DNA from: a virus
Strand: one strand, 5' to 3'
Length of the DNA: 28,912 nucleotides
UHGV virus genome: UHGV-1359478
Both the position numbers and the translations under genes were made by a program. This document shows, in pieces, positions 1-20,935 of this stretch. Each line of letters starts with the position of its first letter. Position 1 is the stretch's first letter. The notes under the pieces are model-generated. The model had not been told where the DNA came from, ran no database searches, and worked only from the letters and a program-made list of their open reading frames with translations.

Positions 1-193
1 AATTGATAAGCAATGCTTTTTTATAATGCCAACTTAGTATAAAAAAGCTGAACGACAAACAGAAAACATTGTAAATATCAATATGTTATAAAAGATTTAG
101 TCTAAATAATAGACTACATAATACTACAAAACACAACATATCCAGTCACTATGAATCAACCACTTAGATGGTATTAGTGACCTGTAACAGAGC
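1..193. other. attP: lambda-type attP region: P' arm (1-33), core (34-48), P arm with arm-type Int sites (49-~193)
   Basis: Reverse complement of 1-50 reads CAGCTTTTTTATACTAAGTTGGCATTATAAAAAAGCATTGCTTATCAATT, matching my memory of lambda attP core plus P' arm. Arm-type Int-site-like motifs CAGTCACTAT (143-152) and CAGGTCACTAATA (rc of 172-184). AT-rich. Confidence 0.75.
34..48. other. 15-bp att common core (GCTTTTTTATACTAA on the minus strand)
   Basis: Exact 15/15 match to the lambda core sequence as I remember it; flanked by an 11-bp inverted copy at 15-25. Confidence 0.75.
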
Positions 194-194
194 A

Positions 195-235
195 TTAGCG
201 CAAGGTGATTTTTTGTCTTCTTGCGCTAATTTTTT
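195..235 (+). terminator. Rho-independent terminator, tI/sib-like (would terminate int-direction transcripts coming through att)
   Basis: 10-bp perfect inverted repeat TTAGCGCAAG (195-204) / CTTGCGCTAA (220-229) followed by TTTTTT (230-235). Position relative to att matches lambda sib/tI. Confidence 0.5.
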
Positions 236-348
236 GTCAATGCACTGGGTTAGTTGAATTTACAACCATGCTCAGTATCTCGATAAGCGCAGGTAGATGA
301 TGCAGTGGTGGGCTGATTACATCGATGGTCGTGCAGGAGTGTAAGCCA

Positions 349-1380
349 TTACGCGAATTCTTCCACGATCGCCATGCCAGTAGCACCATCACCACCGGTA
401 AATGCCGTACCGGTAAACCCAAGGTCATACGCGCCACCACCACCGGATCCGGGAGCTGCGCCAGCAATACCGGCCTGAGAACCCGCCCGGCCACCGCCGC
501 CAAAATACGACGCCCCGCCGTTGCCCGTCAGAAGGCTTGAGCCTGTCTGTCCATCTGAGCCGGTACCACCGTTGATCCTGATATCTCCGGTCGCCGCCGT
601 ACCTCCGGCGCCGCCGGCGGTATTGGACACGCCTGACTTCACGCCGCCTTTCCCGCCAGGAGCTGAGAACAGGCTGGCAAACGAGGTGGCCCCACCATCC
701 GCACCACTTACTGCGCCAACTCCACCCTTACCACCCTTGCCGACAGTAATCGCATAAGAACTGGCAGCAGACAGGTCAACCCATACGATAATGGTCGCGC
801 CCGCGCCGCCGCCAGCACCGGAGAAGGTTTCGGTGTTATTAGATGCCTGGCACCCGCCACCGCCGCCACCGCCTCCGACCAACGTTACTTTTGCATAACG
901 GGCCAGAGGAGAGCGCGTATAGGTTCCGTTTGCATAGAACGCTTTTGGAGCGCCAAGAGAACGCCCGACAAAACCAGAGGAATCAGATATTCCGAGGTTA
1001 TAACGGGCTTCATTTACCGCATCCTCACCGGCATCTTTAATTTCTGACAGGTTATTGCTGATCTGCAGGAAAGATAATAAAGACCCGGCGGTCATTAAAT
1101 TCGCAACAATGTCATTCGTTGACCATACACGTGCCGTAGTTCCTTCCTGACCACGAATTACTGTCATCACGTCACCGGATACAGACGTGACGTGCATAAT
1201 TTCAGAAATTGTTTTCGTGGCCGCGTCGGTTATCGTTAATTTGAAATAACTCTGCCCTGATACAGGGGACGGGAATAAAGACCCCGCTCCAGTACCCACG
1301 GTAATAACGGTAGCGGACGCGCTAATACCCGCAGCGAGAACACTCTTTGCGTTATTATTGGCTAATAGCTTCAGCGCCAT
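349..1380 (-). CDS. Tail fiber protein 2: N-terminal anchor domain shared with fiber 1, glycine-rich C-terminal region
   Basis: 343-aa ORF. First ~100 aa align with the N-terminus of the 961-aa fiber (MAL.LLA.NNA.S.LA..ISA...GTGA...P...G.SYFKLT.TDAAT...GD..T..R.QEGT.AR.W..ND.VAN.MTA). C-terminal half is long Gly/Ala/Ser/Thr runs including a G8 run. Confidence 0.7.
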   Translation of the reverse strand: MALKLLANNNAKSVLAAGISASATVITVGTGAGSLFPSPVSGQSYFKLTITDAATKTISEIMHVTSVSGDVMTVIRGQEGTTARVWSTNDIVANLMTAGSLLSFLQISNNLSEIKDAGEDAVNEARYNLGISDSSGFVGRSLGAPKAFYANGTYTRSPLARYAKVTLVGGGGGGGGCQASNNTETFSGAGGGAGATIIVWVDLSAASSYAITVGKGGKGGVGAVSGADGGATSFASLFSAPGGKGGVKSGVSNTAGGAGGTAATGDIRINGGTGSDGQTGSSLLTGNGGASYFGGGGRAGSQAGIAGAAPGSGGGGAYDLGFTGTAFTGGDGATGMAIVEEFA

Positions 1381-1435
1381 ATATACCCCAGTTAAATAAT
1401 AGAATTATCGGAACGAACATCGCAGATAGTAAACG

Positions 1436-1711
1436 TCACGACGCCGATGACAGTAACATCGTCCAGGGCTNNNNNNNNNNNNNNNNNNNNNNNNNNNNNN
1501 NNNNNNNNNNNNNNNNNNNNNNNNNNNNNNNNNNNNNNNNNNNNNNNNNNNNNNNNNNNNNTTGGCTACCCTGCTTTGGCTTCAGGGAGATATCCAGTAC
1601 AACGTAACCACCAGATCGCTCGAAGACGAGCGTATTTGGACCGACATTGCAGATCGAGTTAACCGTTAATCGCTGTTCCGTGTAGTCCGTCGCCGGTGAT
1701 GGAAAGCCCAT
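1436..1711 (-). CDS. Hypothetical protein, interrupted by the assembly gap (true length unknown)
   Basis: ATG at 1711..1709 overlaps the stop of the upstream gene (TAATG); GGGGAGGG Shine-Dalgarno 7 nt upstream. The ORF runs through the N run at 1471-1561. Confidence 0.35.
   Translation of the reverse strand: MGFPSPATDYTEQRLTVNSICNVGPNTLVFERSGGYVVLDISLKPKQGSQXXXXXXXXXXXXXXXXXXXXXXXXXXXXXXXPWTMLLSSAS
1471..1561. other. Assembly gap (91 N)
   Basis: Run of n characters in the sequence. Confidence 0.99.
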
Positions 1712-1950
1712 TACAGAACCCTCCCCATGTTGGCCATCATCCACAGGCGGTTTTCGCTGTGCTCTGCCGTTTTGTCGACGAAATAAGACTGCTCACGTGC
1801 GATCCAGGCGTTAGCCTCCACCTCGGAAAAGTGGATGCCGCGCCGGCGCAGCGCTGACACAAAATCCTTTGTGTGCAGGTACTGGTATCCTTTGGGGTTA
1901 CGCAATACCGACTCGCGGAATGCCTGATTGATGTCTGACTGTCGAAGCAT
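1711..1950 (-). CDS. Hypothetical small protein (~79 aa), function unknown
   Basis: ORF MLRQSDINQAFRESVLRNPKGYQYLHTKDFVSALRRRGIHF... between the two fiber genes. Start is either ATG at 1950 or GTG at 1971. Confidence 0.5.
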   Translation of the reverse strand: MLRQSDINQAFRESVLRNPKGYQYLHTKDFVSALRRRGIHFSEVEANAWIAREQSYFVDKTAEHSENRLWMMANMGRVL

Positions 1951-2041
1951 GATCTGCCATCCGATGAACACTGTTTTTATATACAGTAGTTTTATCGAGA
2001 GGGAAGATCAACCCCGTTCAGTCTGCGTAGGTTTTTTGTGC

Positions 2042-2329
2042 TTAGAGGGCAACAGCCCCAGCAAACTCTTCAGCTTGCATAAGTTGCCCTTCAGCCTGTT
2101 CTGTCCACGGCTTTGATGACAAAGCGTCCAGAGTTACCGCATACTCTCCTGCGTTAACTTTCGCCGCATCATTATATCGAACAGATACTGAGGCTTTAAC
2201 TTGACCTGCATCATCCTGTCTGACGCTTTCTACTGCATAAATTAAATCTATTTCAACATCCTTGTCGCAGAGATATCCTCAGAGATAATAAATCTGGACA
2301 GTTTTTACTGCTGAAATTTTAAAAGCCAT
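2042..2329 (-). pseudogene. Small ORF directly downstream of fiber 1, interrupted by an in-frame TGA at 2279..2281
   Basis: AAGGA Shine-Dalgarno then ATG 6 nt later. MAFKISAVKTVQIYYL-TGA-GYLCDKDVEIDL... continues in the same frame for 78 more codons. The stop lies in the first copy of a direct repeat TATCTCTGAGGA/TATCTCTGCGAC. Confidence 0.35.
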
Positions 2330-2338
2330 GATAATTCC

Positions 2339-5224
2339 TTATGCTGCAGAGTAATATTTATCTCCGAATATGAGATTGGCAATCTTCCTTGCCGCGACTT
2401 TCAGCGTGTAGTCGAAAGTTACGGTGTACCCGTTATCGTTCATGTGGTTGTAGTTCCCAACCGGGACGTTATATACCGACGAGTAGCCGCCCACCTCTAC
2501 GCCATACTTAAAGAACGACTTTTCACAATCGGCGAGGAACGCGCCTTTTTGACGTGCGACGACCCTTTGCATATTATTCACCATTTCGAACCGCACATCC
2601 CCCTGCACCTTAACACCGCTGCCGGACCAGTCTTTTGTTACAAAGGAAACTGACGGTGCAGGGTAAAGAATATCCTCAGCGATGGACTGCAGGTTAACGT
2701 GCCGGATCGCTGTCGAGTAGCTTCCACTTGCCGGGATTGCCTCCTGGACAGTTATGGTATTCCGGTCAGAGGAAATGGCTGTGATAGTGTAGTTGCCGGC
2801 GTTGTCTCCGCTTTCTACGCGCAGAGTATGCCCTGGCTTCAGAATATCGCCGCCATAATTCGGGTTAGCAAAGTTACTTTGCGTGATAGTGTTAGCGACT
2901 GCGTCAAAGACATAATTACTTGTTACATTATATGTCCTAACTGGCCAGAACAGTGGGTTTCCGCCGGGGATTGTGGGATACGTTTGGGACATTTCTACGT
3001 TATGGTGCGGCGTAGTACAGATGATCGGTATCGCCCCCCGTGCCAGGCACAGGTCAACCAGCTCCTCTAGCGTCCGTTTCTGCCCCGGGAAAGTGAGTCC
3101 CATGTTGAAGTTGCCAACAGGTGCATCATTCATGCCGCCAACAATCAAAACAAAGTCAGAGGTTGAATAAGGCGAATTAGCTAACTGGGCAGCGAACTGC
3201 TGGAATGCCTGGGTCGGTATGCACTGGTTATCATCGATGATGTCGAACTCGCCATACTGCTTAAGCTCTTCCTTCAAGGCGTTGACGAACAGCGTGTTCG
3301 GAGCATAAGGAGCACCCGCCGCTCCGCCGCCAGTGGAACCAGCCCCAACACCCACAGAAGGCCCAATGGACGTACAAATTATCTGGCGCTTTGTGACGGT
3401 CTTTACCCCCGCGGACCAAGTTATAGCACCGAATGGCGACTGGTCTGAAGATACCCCGGTGCCCACGAGTTTATCCGCCAGAGCAGCATAAGGGTCTGTC
3501 AGCGCCCCCTTGAGGGTCGTAACGTCTTTTGAGAGGGTCTGTATATCTGTGGTTGGATCACCGGCATACAACAGCTTAAAGTTATTCTGCGGAGAGCCAC
3601 GGTATTGCACAGTGGCTGGCATTGCCGCCCGCAGTTCTCCACCAGTTAGCGCAGTATTCGCCCCTTTGAATAAGTTACGCGTGACTGTGTTACCGTACAT
3701 GTCGGTGATGACAAGAGTCATAGCACCTGTATTTGCAGCAACTGGCTCAAAAGTAAGCTGAGTTCCATCTCCAAGTAACCCGGGAATTGTTAATGCTACT
3801 GAGTTAGGACTGGTAGCATCACTGGTAACAGTTGCCTTTGAATAACCATTAAGTACACGACTTCTGTCAGCCGGGTAGGTCAGCATCCGAAAATCTGCTG
3901 ATGAAAAATTAAATTTGATTAAATACGTGTAGCCCGCTACCAAATCTCCCGCAGCGACGTTGGTCCCGTTATTTTGCTTAATCTGCCTCGCCGTACCACC
4001 ATTAACGGAAAGAGTTGGCGTGCGGGTTATATTAGTGGCGCTTGGCGTAAAAAGAAAGACACGATCAGACGCAACAATTCCAGGGATTGCAGATGCGGTA
4101 CCGGAATAGGCATCTCCAGTATTAGCAACGCCAGACAATAACGCTACGCTATTTAATTCAAGCGTGGAAATTCTTGACGCAAGTTCAGCAGCTACTGGGC
4201 CGGATGCCACAAGGACAAAATTGTTAGCAGTCCCAGTGCGGAATTCCATCAGTGCGGGCTGATTGAGAAGCAACTCATTCCCAACTAAAGCTGCATTATT
4301 TTGTTTCTGTATTGCCCGAGTAACCGAGTTCCCCCTGGCATCTGTCACGGTAACGCTAACAGCCGCCGTATTCAAAATAGGAGACAGGAAATAAATCAAA
4401 CTGCCATCCACTAATAATCCGGGGATAGTGATAGCAATGGTATTAGCCGCACCGCTACTCACAGCTGTAGCAGACTGGTAACCCATTGGCATTGCGGATG
4501 GCATTTTCCGTCCAGTAGGCTGCAGCGTTCCTGAGGTGTTAATAACCTCAATCGCAAGAGTTGCGTCGTCAGCGCTTCGATAATACGCGGTTGATCCGAT
4601 GGGGATATTTCCAGCGTCTGCATCAGCCTGCGCAGCCGCCAGCGTAGGGAATTCGCGTATGGTATTAGTTATAGATCCCTGTCCGGGGAACTCAGCAACC
4701 TCTTGTGCTACGCCTGAGTTATTTTTGTAATAACGGAAAGCAAGGACATTTCCTGTCCCCTGGGGAACGCGGAAGTATTGCCCGCTCGTCGTCGCTGCAA
4801 GTCCAGCCGCCGTATCAGCAAAGGTTGATTTATTGTCACCAAACTCCGACGCGCTAAGTGCATATCCCTGCGCCTCTTCCGCTGAATCAGATGCCTGTTT
4901 TGCAAAATCAGCGATCACATTCAGCGTGTCAGCGGTCATCATGTTGGCAACCATATCATTGGCCGCCCACGCTCGCGCCAGCGTCCCTTCCTGTGCGCGT
5001 TCAATCGTGAAGATGTCTCCAGCCTTGGCTGTCACGTTCACGATCTCAACCTGTGAGCCAGTGGCGGCATCGGTGAGAGTGAGCTTAAAGTAACTCTCGC
5101 CTGCCACAGCATCAGGGAACTCGGCACCAGTTCCAGCGCTAACGATCAGCGACGTGTCGGTTGCGCTGATAGCAGAAGCCAGCGTGCTTTCTGCGTTGTT
5201 TGTAGCCAAAAGGGTTAGTGCCAT
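2339..5224 (-). CDS. Tail fiber protein 1 (961 aa): shared N-terminal anchor, three internal tandem repeats, C-terminal domain with a GxND motif (possible SGNH-type esterase)
   Basis: Long ORF; likely start is ATG at 5224 with a GGAGGA Shine-Dalgarno (the track ORF starts 7 codons earlier at a non-ATG). N-terminus homologous to fiber 2. Repeated ~90-aa units containing IPGLL.DG...GN.VTR. C-terminal LIVGGMNDA motif. Confidence 0.8.
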   Translation of the reverse strand: MALTLLATNNAESTLASAISATDTSLIVSAGTGAEFPDAVAGESYFKLTLTDAATGSQVEIVNVTAKAGDIFTIERAQEGTLARAWAANDMVANMMTADTLNVIADFAKQASDSAEEAQGYALSASEFGDNKSTFADTAAGLAATTSGQYFRVPQGTGNVLAFRYYKNNSGVAQEVAEFPGQGSITNTIREFPTLAAAQADADAGNIPIGSTAYYRSADDATLAIEVINTSGTLQPTGRKMPSAMPMGYQSATAVSSGAANTIAITIPGLLVDGSLIYFLSPILNTAAVSVTVTDARGNSVTRAIQKQNNAALVGNELLLNQPALMEFRTGTANNFVLVASGPVAAELASRISTLELNSVALLSGVANTGDAYSGTASAIPGIVASDRVFLFTPSATNITRTPTLSVNGGTARQIKQNNGTNVAAGDLVAGYTYLIKFNFSSADFRMLTYPADRSRVLNGYSKATVTSDATSPNSVALTIPGLLGDGTQLTFEPVAANTGAMTLVITDMYGNTVTRNLFKGANTALTGGELRAAMPATVQYRGSPQNNFKLLYAGDPTTDIQTLSKDVTTLKGALTDPYAALADKLVGTGVSSDQSPFGAITWSAGVKTVTKRQIICTSIGPSVGVGAGSTGGGAAGAPYAPNTLFVNALKEELKQYGEFDIIDDNQCIPTQAFQQFAAQLANSPYSTSDFVLIVGGMNDAPVGNFNMGLTFPGQKRTLEELVDLCLARGAIPIICTTPHHNVEMSQTYPTIPGGNPLFWPVRTYNVTSNYVFDAVANTITQSNFANPNYGGDILKPGHTLRVESGDNAGNYTITAISSDRNTITVQEAIPASGSYSTAIRHVNLQSIAEDILYPAPSVSFVTKDWSGSGVKVQGDVRFEMVNNMQRVVARQKGAFLADCEKSFFKYGVEVGGYSSVYNVPVGNYNHMNDNGYTVTFDYTLKVAARKIANLIFGDKYYSAA

Positions 5225-5246
5225 GTATCCTCCGGGATTAGGCAAT

Positions 5247-5271
5247 AAAAAAACCGCAAGCGCGGCCTTTT
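5247..5271. terminator. Short GC hairpin flanked by A7 and T4 (weak bidirectional terminator candidate)
   Basis: AAAAAAA-CCGC-AAGC-GCGG-CC-TTTT. On the minus strand the stem is followed by T7. The stem is only 4 bp, so this is weak. Confidence 0.3.
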
Positions 5272-5273
5272 AA

Positions 5274-5552
5274 ATGGTGAATATTATGAATAATGCTTCT
5301 ATTGCTATTTTAAAAATACTTTTAGGAACTCTATCTACTTTATTAATACTCCTTTCGTTCGCCTTGCTTATTATTTTATTTGGATTTCTTTTTCAGCAAG
5401 GAATGCCGCCAATAGATATGATAAAAATGTCATCCATTTTGTTTTTATCAATAGTTGTGCTGTATATAATTTGTCAGAGCGTTAAATCACATCTGTATAT
5501 AACAATAGATAATCGAGATAAAAACCTAATCAAATATCTCAACCGTGACTGA
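5274..5552 (+). CDS. Moron: small hydrophobic (two predicted TM helices) protein encoded antisense to the late operon in an AT-rich island
   Basis: 92-codon open frame in a strongly AT-rich 300-bp segment, where random ORFs of this length are unlikely. Product MNNASIAILKILLGTLSTLLILLSFALLIILFGFLF... is highly hydrophobic. No minus-strand ORF longer than 14 codons in this interval. Opposite strand to all neighbours. Confidence 0.5.
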   Translation: MVNIMNNASIAILKILLGTLSTLLILLSFALLIILFGFLFQQGMPPIDMIKMSSILFLSIVVLYIICQSVKSHLYITIDNRDKNLIKYLNRD

Positions 5553-6230
5553 CTGGTAAAACGGCATGTGCAGCAGGCCGCTATCCATGGCCTGCTTGAA
5601 AAAAATGGCGAACTCGAAATCCTCAGTGATCACAAAGGCCGTGTCCTTCTGGTTGTACTTCCTGGAGTTATAGGCCGATGCATTGTAGATAGCGCTCCGC
5701 GTGAACATGCGGCGCCCTTTATAGATGGAAATCACGATACCGCCATCCACAAACTGGATCGAGATACTCCATCGCTGGTCGTTGAGAATGTCGGTGCCAT
5801 TCACTCCCAAAAGGAACCGCAGAATACGCCGCTTTATCCATGGGATAGAGAAATAGAAGCCGTCACCTTTGTAAAAATTCCAGGTCATGATCCGCTTAAA
5901 AAGGTCATCAGAGACAACAACCTGGTTTGACTGGTCAATCACCCGGTACTCATTGAATGCCAGCTGGTTAAATTCGAAGGTGTTATATGGGCCTATCTCC
6001 TGCTGATCGCTGCTGGAAATCACCGGCGGCAAAACGCCATAGATGCCATGGGCAATCCACCGGAGCTGATCTCCGGTGTTGTAGTCACCGATGAAAATCG
6101 GCAGGTTGGCATTAACCATCCAGTCATAAATGCCCTGCGCCATCGAGTTATACGCAGTAAAAAACGCCCGCAGATTTTCATCGTCGTTGTATTGCGTATA
6201 CATATACGACCGGATGATATCGTCCAGCAT
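5526..6230 (-). CDS. Baseplate / tail-fiber attachment protein (hypothetical)
   Basis: 234-aa ORF between a baseplate-wedge-like gene and the fiber; function inferred from gene order only. Confidence 0.5.
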   Translation of the reverse strand: MLDDIIRSYMYTQYNDDENLRAFFTAYNSMAQGIYDWMVNANLPIFIGDYNTGDQLRWIAHGIYGVLPPVISSSDQQEIGPYNTFEFNQLAFNEYRVIDQSNQVVVSDDLFKRIMTWNFYKGDGFYFSIPWIKRRILRFLLGVNGTDILNDQRWSISIQFVDGGIVISIYKGRRMFTRSAIYNASAYNSRKYNQKDTAFVITEDFEFAIFFKQAMDSGLLHMPFYQSVTVEIFD

Positions 6231-6231
6231 G

Positions 6232-7650
6232 CTACGCCCCTGTTACGATCACGCCATCCGACGCGATATAAAAATAACTGAACTTATCGCCGCTGATGAT
6301 ATTCGTCCCGGCATCCGGTGGCGTTATCACACCATTGATGGTGACCACGACGTTTAAAGTGCTGATCAGCCCCATGTCGATTGTCGAGTTAATCGCCTGT
6401 AAGAATGCGTCTTTCAGGTTGTTAACGTTCAGCGGTTTCCCGGCGAATATGCCGTTCACATACTGAATCGTAGGAGCCGAGACCAGAGAGGCGACCGTCG
6501 CATCAGTCAGGTAGTTAACACTTTCGGTCCCCCACTGATACGTCACAGTGACCCGCTGCAGCAATGGCGTCACGAACGGGATCACGTAGTTATCAGGCCA
6601 GTCATTCACCGTCACGGTATTGTTTCTGACGTTCGGTGTCACCTCGCCGCCGCCTCCCCAGGTCCCGGATGAAGTGGTATCAATCCCGATGGAAAAAGTG
6701 TGAGGAGACAGTACCGTCACGGTCAGAGGAACGTCATTAATACCCGTCATCCCGGTAACGCCAGTGATCCGGATAACCTGGCCGTCAGTGTAGCCATGAG
6801 TCAGGTCTGTGCTGACGACGCCAGGATTTGCATTCGTGATCCCAGTTACATTCAGTGAACACCCTTTCAGCCGGCTGATATCCCCCGCAGACTTATAGAG
6901 CGCGCCAGCAATATCGTAAATATCACCGCCGGCGCACATGACTATCCACTTATCCCCGTCCTGAATGACAGAAACCAGGCGCGCCTGCACGTTATCAAGG
7001 CTGGTGAGATATTGCCGGATAAATCCAGGATATCCCTGAACGGTGGCCATCTGCGCCTGCCATACGCGATCACGAAACTGATAGTTCGTTTCCGGGTCAG
7101 CACCAGGAGTGCCGGCGATCGGGTTGGTGCAGGTAATGGTTACGTCAGACGGTAGACTGGATATGATCTGGTTAACCGTATTTACCGGAACCGCCCAGGT
7201 CCCGGTCTCTGTTCCCTCGCATGATACGCTGGCAGACACTCCTGACGACGAGATTATCGTCGCATCACTGACTGAATAGGTATAGGTCCCATCAGAAACA
7301 ATAAACCCCTGTGGGATAACAAATCCCGCGGGGCCGGAAAACTGAACCGGGACTGTTGTTGTGCCAGCCGTTTTCTGCCCAGGAATACCAGCCTGCTGTG
7401 CGAGAAGCTCCAGCATGGCCAGGTTAGCCTTTAGTGGCCCCACCGAGTTAATCAGGTCAACCCTTGCTTGATCACAAACGATGAGCGCGCCGACATCGGT
7501 ACTGGCCACGTCCTCAATCAGAGATCCAGGCAAATCAGTTGTGAGTCCCGGAGATAGCGCAACTGCCTGAGAAACGAGCTGTGCTCTTAGCTCTTCCGGC
7601 GTCAGAGGAACCGGGCCTGCTGACGTATAGCTGACTGGTAAATCGCTCAT
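6232..7650 (-). CDS. Baseplate wedge protein (J-like) carrying an inserted ~60-aa module
   Basis: 472-aa ORF in the baseplate block. Contains HGYTDGQVIRITGV...TFSIG, a module also seen in two other virion proteins. Confidence 0.5.
   Translation of the reverse strand: MSDLPVSYTSAGPVPLTPEELRAQLVSQAVALSPGLTTDLPGSLIEDVASTDVGALIVCDQARVDLINSVGPLKANLAMLELLAQQAGIPGQKTAGTTTVPVQFSGPAGFVIPQGFIVSDGTYTYSVSDATIISSSGVSASVSCEGTETGTWAVPVNTVNQIISSLPSDVTITCTNPIAGTPGADPETNYQFRDRVWQAQMATVQGYPGFIRQYLTSLDNVQARLVSVIQDGDKWIVMCAGGDIYDIAGALYKSAGDISRLKGCSLNVTGITNANPGVVSTDLTHGYTDGQVIRITGVTGMTGINDVPLTVTVLSPHTFSIGIDTTSSGTWGGGGEVTPNVRNNTVTVNDWPDNYVIPFVTPLLQRVTVTYQWGTESVNYLTDATVASLVSAPTIQYVNGIFAGKPLNVNNLKDAFLQAINSTIDMGLISTLNVVVTINGVITPPDAGTNIISGDKFSYFYIASDGVIVTGA

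Positions 7651-19318: not shown

Positions 19319-20935
<1,617 letters not shown>

Follow-up and report, generated by a model that had tools for sequence, protein, structure and literature searches.

The closest described relatives of the locus analysed here are RothC/RothD and Chronis, named as the founding members of the Felixviridae in the report on that family (PMC12629751). The same report describes the RothD protein gp33 as a short tail fibre with a polyglycine-rich domain, a preprint flags RothD gp28 as a receptor-binding protein (10.1101/2024.12.02.626457), and the passages searched in the two papers make no mention of an N-terminal domain shared by gp28 and gp33. Here, we examined a 28,912-nucleotide stretch of viral DNA, UHGV virus genome UHGV-1359478 (hereafter the window), which encodes orthologues of both proteins, fibA (gp28; 961 residues) and fibB (gp33; 343 residues). 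Our preferred reading, to which we assign a probability of roughly 0.6, is that fibA and fibB are virion receptor-binding proteins of a temperate Felixviridae-type myovirus, docked on its baseplate through paralogous N-terminal anchors. The published descriptions of gp33 and gp28 lend independent support to both as receptor-binding proteins.

Other phages offer partial parallels. In T7 and K1F, an N-terminal anchor of ~100-150 residues is kept and receptor-binding or enzymatic distal domains are exchanged horizontally (PMC6872550), as appears to be the case here; those versions, however, are found in different phages and belong to another anchor family, whereas the window holds two paralogous anchors in one genome. 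K1-5, K1E and SP6, as well as KP32, KP34 and G7C, carry two receptor-binding proteins of different specificities on one virion, K1-5 and SP6 on an adapter and KP32, KP34, G7C and CBA120 as anchor-branch systems (PMC6872550). In the K1-5, K1E and SP6 as well as the KP32, KP34 and G7C systems, the second protein docks by a peptide of 7-11 residues onto the adapter or a T4 gp10-like domain (PMC6872550). fibB differs from such second proteins in having a full domain of ~100 residues homologous to the fibA anchor; the string MAL(K/T)LLA found here resembles the KP34 peptide ‘MALxxLV’, which is a lead at most. The fibB tip (residues ~140-343) is glycine-rich and of the polyglycine-II type, like those of the Pam3 fibre and the Bxb1 tail tip, but it shares only 24-26% identity with them, and the fibB anchor is unrelated to their attachment parts as far as alignments show. 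Salmonella phage S16 gp38 is a further glycine-rich tip of the polyglycine-II type (as cited in PMC12629751). Set beside these systems, the window contains a dual receptor-binding set on paralogous anchors, a conserved and fairly ordinary way to carry two host-recognition proteins.

By sequence comparison, which for this assignment rests on the 28.9-kb window, the phage is a member of the recently named Felixviridae, of the Maevirinae type. Its DNA is 93-95% identical to RothC/RothD/Chronis in the matched parts, with the same gene order; the phrog_8212 protein is 98% identical, the Baseplate_J protein 98-99%, and the neighbouring baseplate proteins 84-99%, with one gene at 48% in RothC. The likeness extends to a long variable spike, accessory genes, a umuD-like gene, a glycine-rich fibre of ~350 residues, an attachment site and an integrase. 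The window differs from these phages in representing an E. coli version whose attachment site is of lambda type and whose spike has another tip, of SGNH type, and the exact fibA and fibB proteins are found in E. coli records. Matches to sheath, hub and wedge PHROGs indicate a contractile tail, and the late operon lies on the minus strand. The features on which the argument depends are as follows.

349..1380, minus strand: fibB, 343-residue short fibre (open reading frame; tail-fibre PHROG matches; ratio of nonsynonymous to synonymous substitution rates, dN/dS, 0.04-0.11)
352..963, minus strand: glycine-rich distal domain of fibB, residues ~140-343, predicted receptor-binding tip (Gly_rich_2; AlphaFold2; Foldseek)
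1066..1380, minus strand: fibB N-domain, residues 1-105, ancestral-type anchor as judged from its relatives (PDB 8jov_1 match E 3.6e-7, profile 5e-10)
2339..5224, minus strand: fibA, 961-residue long spike or fibre with anchor, linker, repeats and esterase-like domain (open reading frame; tail-fibre PHROG matches)
2342..3391, minus strand: SGNH/GDSL-like esterase region of fibA, residues ~612-961 (sub-threshold PF13472; conserved SGNH blocks)
3506..4483, minus strand: fibA shaft with two repeats of ~110 residues, residues 248-356 and 461-573 (39% identity, E 1e-23)
4487..4825, minus strand: fibA linker, residues 134-246 (matches to PHROGs 14987, 9750, 3257, 31290 and 33908)
4910..5224, minus strand: fibA N-domain, residues 1-105, paralogous anchor (55% identity to the fibB N-domain; PDB 8jov_1 match E 1.9e-10)
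5526..7650, minus strand: baseplate wedge genes for the 234-residue phrog_8212 protein and the 472-residue Baseplate_J protein, directly upstream of fibA (Pfam and PHROG matches)

The homology between fibA and fibB is confined to their N termini. BLASTP aligned residues 1-134 of fibB with residues 1-127 of fibA (65/134 identities, 49%, E 2e-33) and returned no significant segment outside this shared part. Residues 1-105 align without a gap and with 58 identical columns (55% identity; 57% across residues 1-100), including all three motifs quoted in a first-pass annotation of this DNA, whose proposal that the first ~100 residues correspond residue for residue was thereby borne out with a similarity far beyond chance. 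The same annotation had described the nucleotide sequences as diverged, and indeed nucleotide identity in the region coding for the shared part is only 59%, and synonymous sites there have reached saturation. A scan of window positions 1-5700 revealed no direct or inverted DNA repeat linking the two genes, which, together with the 59% nucleotide identity, indicates that there has been no gene conversion between the anchors.

Both N-domains belong to a large family. Residues 6-128 of PDB 8jov_1, which is a 439-residue ‘putative tail fiber protein’ with 18 copies of the chain in the entry, were matched by fibA (E 1.9e-10), by fibB (E 3.6e-7) and by the fibB-homologue profile (E 5e-10); 18 chains would fit six trimers. 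We take 8jov to be the portal-tail complex of the Ralstonia podophage GP4; a literature search on the PDB code found nothing. A profile of both N-domains recovered 15,316 representative clusters (E<=1e-3), of which 6,374 pass E<=1e-10; in nearly all of the best 150 of the 15,316 matches the domain spans residues 1-104, and the whole protein is 180-880 residues long. The 110-residue N-domain query gave short partial proteins only, and the architectures were taken from full-length and exhaustive searches. No Pfam model matched the N-domain, the T7 anchor model included. These comparisons identify the shared N-domain as a widespread N-terminal module of tail fibres, and its predicted role as an anchor on the Felix-type baseplate is well founded, since it is homologous to a virion-resolved fibre N-terminus and is the sole conserved part of the single fibre encoded behind the same baseplate genes in more distant relatives.

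The pair is constant among close relatives. Both fibA and fibB are present at every one of the 30 loci whose baseplate proteins are >94% identical, which comprise RothC, Chronis, E. coli prophages, a Raoultella prophage and 24 IMG/VR contigs, in the order wedge genes, fibA, accessory genes, usually the phrog_3893 and umuD-like genes, fibB and attachment site. By comparison, ~39 more distant loci, whose baseplate proteins are 52-77% identical (37-40% in Saccharibacter), have a single N-domain gene of 260-512 residues. In these one-fibre loci the gene lies directly behind the phrog_8212 gene, that is, behind the same baseplate genes, which argues that the N-domain is the native anchor for the Felix baseplate. 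Wedge genes and an N-domain fibre co-occur in all Felix-type loci, down to the 37-40% identity of Saccharibacter, and the phrog_8212 and Baseplate_J wedge proteins are the probable docking platform for the fibres. The Baseplate_J protein (6232-7650) also holds an insert similar to the ubiquitin-E1 FCCH domain (residues 275-338, E 4e-14), which is kept in one-fibre relatives down to Saccharibacter and is absent from the J proteins of other fibB-carrying backbones.

The single fibres also point to the ancestry of the pair. Pfam scans of six of them gave a Gly_rich_2 tip in three, a gp53-like C-terminus in one and no match in two, and single-fibre anchors are 64-77% identical to the fibB anchor and 61-68% to that of fibA. 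Since the single fibres are largely of fibB design and their anchors are nearer to that of fibB, fibB looks like the ancestral-type fibre and fibA like a derived chimera, composed of a duplicated anchor and a mobile esterase-spike module. An independent pair was found in a Stakelama (alphaproteobacterial) metagenome contig (L014, 1879-5038), where two adjacent fibre genes have N-termini of ~130 residues of the same family, 58% identical to each other, and unrelated remainders.

Both anchors are under strong purifying selection. RothC, Chronis and two E. coli prophages have the same fibA anchor residue for residue (100% identity) at synonymous divergence (dS) of up to 0.27, and the anchor of the Raoultella relative reaches 90% identity; the fibB anchor is 87-100% identical within its paralogue. 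Values of dN/dS are 0-0.10 in each anchor and 0.04-0.11 for the whole of fibB. The possibility that fibB is a decaying relic in Felix-type phages was ruled out by dN/dS, by its intactness and by the exchange of its tip.

Beyond the anchor, fibB ends in a confidently modelled glycine-rich domain. Pfam Gly_rich_2 (PF21722) covers residues 153-340 (57.1 bits, cut-off 24.3), and residues 140-343 reach an AlphaFold2 predicted local distance difference test (pLDDT) score above 90 in a model from 39 homologues. Foldseek matched this tip to the cyanophage Pam3 fibre and mycobacteriophage Bxb1 tail-tip chains (E ~3e-8) and, weakly, to the ALK/LTK glycine-rich domain, and the fibB sequence profile also finds the Pam3 fibre (E 1.6e-8). 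fibB is ~99% identical among E. coli prophages and 52-53% identical to the versions of Klebsiella phages, and fibB-type anchors are found joined to Gly_rich_2, Collar or gp53-like tips. Similar tips occur elsewhere: three unrelated temperate myovirus backbones encode short Gly_rich_2-tipped fibres of their own directly after the wedge genes (L003, 11161-12456; L028, 5202-6113; L037, 4318-5148), each with a different N-terminal anchor, and the glycine-rich tip seems to be common currency among enterobacterial prophages of these types.

fibA is built on a different plan. Its length of 961 residues is counted from an ATG, and an upstream TTG would give 968; homologues are widespread among the fibres of E. 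coli and Klebsiella prophages. The anchor is followed by the linker, which is common to the N-terminal part of many unrelated spikes and is likely a recombination junction for the exchange of distal modules. The two repeats of the shaft enclose a third, middle segment with no significant similarity to either of them. Blocks I, III and V of the SGNH fold are invariant in 25 homologues of the C-terminal region (G621-x-S623, G697-M-N699-D700 and N924-x-x-H927), with Asn in block V where Asp is usual. A precomputed PF13472 match is present in many homologues, PGAP labels the close ones SGNH/GDSL hydrolase, and Foldseek relates the region, consistently but weakly, to Axe2, TesA, EstL5 and rhamnogalacturonan acetylesterase (probability ~1, E ~1e-3, ~150 columns, in a model of mean pLDDT 60). 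NCBIfam gave no name for fibA or fibB. An assignment of the fibA C-terminus as a putative esterase is reasonable, although not proven. The distal ends of fibA are of SGNH/GDSL, sialate O-acetylesterase or TolB-like type and fall into at least 17 length classes among the 30 loci. Among solved structures, full-length fibA matched 8jov alone; at the level of sequence, searching with a profile built from fibA homologues and spanning fibA residues ~130-961 gave none at E<=1 and brought up neither a T4 gp10-like branching domain nor an adapter. The first-pass annotation had contrasted a repeat shaft plus putative esterase with a glycine-rich domain and called the distal parts unrelated. The opposition of repeat shaft and glycine-rich domain was confirmed, BLASTP finding no other match between the proteins, and the esterase keeps its putative status, its Pfam score being sub-threshold.

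In the mechanism that we propose for the preferred reading, the N-domain would trimerise and fix each fibre to the periphery of the baseplate, at the Baseplate_J-like and phrog_8212 proteins. fibB would keep the design of the single original fibre of the lineage, and fibA would have arisen when a duplicated anchor was fused, via the conserved linker, to a horizontally mobile spike module of repeats and an SGNH-type esterase, probably binding and deacetylating O-antigen or capsule. The anchors, now 55-57% identical, would most likely form separate homotrimers with contacts of their own and not be interchangeable, as is suggested by the fact that each has been kept almost unchanged after their divergence. 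The distal end of fibA is strain-variable and fibB is species-conserved, which suggests a division of labour: the esterase spike would make first contact with the surface polysaccharide, and the glycine-rich fibre would recognise a secondary receptor that varies less. The phage type would be one that infects E. coli and Klebsiella, and its specificity may be dual.

fibB is also carried by phages that lack the Felix baseplate. Among 54 fetched fibB loci (mostly from IMG/VR, plus phage and E. coli records), 24 have neither this baseplate nor a fibA-type anchor, and among complete E. coli genomes 73 contain fibB and 43 contain the Felix baseplate with the fibA anchor. The foreign carriers include a PDP110P1-type myovirus, a J/DUF2612-type myovirus, a Mu-like myovirus, siphoviruses with an 825-residue tip protein, and a lambda J-lom-Stf type, and in each of these backbones no other gene lies between fibB and the attachment site. 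The upstream spike matches the fibA linker in most foreign loci, for 44-130 residues (44-56 residues at 57-70% identity, and ~130 residues in the PDP110P1 and lambda-Stf types); in two loci, L063 and L069, it does not. About 22 of 25 foreign copies are intact, and they share anchor variants with the Felix copies. Three of ~25 are disrupted, by an insertion sequence element, a truncated open reading frame or a frameshift, compared with 0/30 in Felix-type phages. In a lambda-type J-lom-Stf prophage contig (L047, 9986-11446), a fibB-type gene breaks off after 152 codons, and a transposase-like open reading frame comes next.

Relaxed selection on the foreign copies was not seen: whole-gene dN/dS was 0.07-0.11 against 0.09, and that of the N-domain 0.04 and 0.06 in Felix and non-Felix contexts. 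Frequent transfer could mask such relaxation. A docking domain common to all fibB backbones was also considered and rejected, the E1_FCCH-like insert being restricted to Felix-type phages and the J, DUF2612 or Mu gp48 proteins of the other backbones being ordinary ones. A glycine-rich short fibre with its own anchor is already present in the foreign myovirus backbones. On the simplest reading of these transfers, fibB is a passenger of the exchange of spike distal modules, with crossovers in the linker and beyond the attachment site.

In phages Mu, P1 and P2, alternative tail-fibre ends are brought into use by DNA inversion, a constant N-terminal part with alternative distal parts serving to widen host range. 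An invertible segment of the Mu Gin or P1 Cin type was rejected for the present locus: there are no flanking inverted repeats in positions 1-5700 and no invertase, and both genes are complete. Unlike the alternative ends of Mu, P1 and P2, fibA and fibB can be co-expressed.

The genes between fibA and fibB bear on how fibB is transcribed and moved.

1392..1711, minus strand: umuD-like gene, S24 peptidase/HumD-type (RothC comparison; C-terminus read by hand)
1711..1950, minus strand: 79-residue gene (phrog_3893), first behind the SOS box (open reading frame; PHROG match; RothC annotation)
1971..1986, no strand assigned: LexA (SOS) box CTGT-N8-ACAG, CTGTTTTTATATACAG, 21 nt upstream of the phrog_3893 ATG (sequence read)
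2042..2327, minus strand: small gene of 95 codons just downstream of fibA (interrupted by an in-frame TGA, codon 17; intact homologues elsewhere)

On the minus strand the LexA box reads TACTGTATATAAAAACAGTG, which is, we presume, identical to the E. coli umuDC operator. The same box lies ~600 nt upstream of fibB in 32 of the 53 loci for which 1 kb or more of sequence precedes fibB, and it accompanies the umuD-like unit wherever that unit occurs. The phrog_3893 gene ends within an overlap with the umuD-like gene, and the fibB ATG lies 11 nt past the umuD-like stop codon. Across its unmasked N-terminal 61 residues, the umuD-like product is 97% identical to the RothC ‘DNA polymerase V subunit UmuD’. 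Within this gene, positions 1471-1561 are masked by 91 N, a number not divisible by three, and for this reason the mechanical list of open reading frames splits the gene into mis-framed pieces. A promoter and terminator scan of positions 1-5700 gave fewer sites than shuffled sequences and nothing between fibA and fibB. fibB may, judging from this arrangement, be transcribed both by late read-through and from the SOS-controlled promoter. Codon 17 of the 95-codon gene, TGA here, is GGA in two intact copies (L033 and L062), and the PDP110P1 copy (L003) is frameshifted; this may be an accessory or chaperone gene in decay, or the stop codon may be a sequencing error.

Several observations weigh against the preferred reading or leave room for others. 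That both proteins are present in the virion is something that we infer. The PF13472 score of the fibA C-terminus is 21.9 bits, under the Pfam cut-off of 32.9, and the structural side of the esterase assignment leans on a low-confidence model with a pLDDT of 60. The AlphaFold2 monomer of the N-domain is unusable (pLDDT <50 for residues 1-110), a result that would fit an obligate oligomer and proves nothing. fibB is set apart from fibA by non-structural genes and stands behind an SOS box, which is unusual for a late structural gene. Intact fibB in at least five backbones without the matching baseplate means either that its anchor works independently of the Felix baseplate or that these copies are passengers. 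Finally, baseplate proteins have the same lengths and domains in one-fibre and two-fibre phages, with no extra docking site visible; same-site, second-site and branched attachment are all compatible with them. The first-pass annotation had placed two alternative receptor-binding proteins on the same baseplate site. The shared N-terminal module with exchangeable distal modules stands, and the old, separately conserved anchors fit two sites at least as well as one. Competition for one site, with both anchors using the same six baseplate positions and virions carrying mixed or alternative fibre sets, would be in keeping with the homologous anchors, with their 58 identical positions, and with the unchanged baseplate. 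We nevertheless regard it as unlikely, given that each paralogue is near-invariant across hosts and yet ~45% different from the other, which implies distinct constraints, and that a pair fixed in 30/30 close relatives better fits complementary functions.

Branched attachment, in which a single anchor contacts the baseplate and the remaining fibre hangs from the protein so anchored (fibB from the fibA linker, for instance), so that the complex could move as a unit, is in our view neither more nor less probable than such competition. It would account for the entry of fibB, together with the distal part of the spike ahead of it, into five or more backbones, for the match of most such spikes to fibA residues 134-246, for the same N-domain variants under similar constraint in Felix and non-Felix contexts, and for the lack of an extra docking domain in two-fibre baseplates, and complexes built from paralogous N-terminal modules are known in phages of the CBA120 and G7C types (PMC6872550). 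However, the one-fibre relatives indicate that the N-domain docks on the baseplate unaided, L063 and L069 carry fibB behind fibres without the linker match, no branching domain, T4 gp10-like or otherwise known from a solved structure, came up with the profile of fibA residues ~130-961, and in the non-Felix myoviruses, which own a glycine-rich short fibre and anchor, fibB looks redundant. A bolder version, in which the esterase spike, the unit of SOS box and umuD-like gene, and fibB form a portable host-range cassette that moves in frame between unrelated temperate myoviruses and siphoviruses, with fibB used in all of them, the fibB anchor docking on a part of the cassette such as the spike linker and its own LexA promoter acting at induction, is in our judgement improbable; were it true, fibB transcription at prophage induction would be independent of the late regulation of the recipient. 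We give least credence to the idea that fibB is mere cargo, a relic or passenger by the attachment site that is carried along in spike exchange and possibly SOS-expressed from the umuD-like unit for another purpose. About 40% of fibB copies do occur in backbones without the matching baseplate (73 versus 43 E. coli genomes; 24/54 loci), disruptions are confined to non-Felix copies, and the gene lies behind non-structural genes and a LexA box. Yet within Felix-type phages fibB has the design of the only fibre of the lineage, is kept in 30/30 close relatives, is under strong purifying selection, and has had its tip swapped among three domain types, as befits a working receptor-binding protein. 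Docking of both proteins through separately conserved paralogous anchors thus remains the reading that we favour.

Other features of the window were recorded alongside this analysis. Positions 1-237 contain an intact attachment site of lambda type (P' arm, core, P arm) and, after it, a sib/tI-like hairpin (187-237). The match of the window to lambda and 434 starts at base 1 and that to integrated E. coli relatives only at base 30, which indicates that the window copy is not joined to host DNA at the attachment site. Between the last baseplate gene and fibA, a very hydrophobic 92-residue open reading frame runs antisense on the plus strand (5274-5552). It is 44-99% identical in many Felix-type loci, Pfam and PHROG searches gave no family for it, and it may be a membrane protein expressed during lysogeny. 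In the head region, a 537-residue protein (19319-20932) joins a NUDIX domain to DUF2213, an unusual fusion for a structural module.

The Felixviridae are newly recognised, mostly prophage-borne and common in gut Enterobacteriaceae. For this family we propose a testable model in which the original Felix fibre was short and glycine-rich and the E. coli/Klebsiella branch gained a strain-variable esterase spike by duplication of the anchor. The N-terminal fibre-anchor family to which both proteins belong comprises >15,000 clusters; our Pfam search returned no model for this family, and one built for it would improve the annotation of receptor-binding proteins and assist the design of chimeric fibres. 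The spread of fibB to other backbones and its position behind an SOS box illustrate, in addition, how host-range modules move among co-resident prophages.

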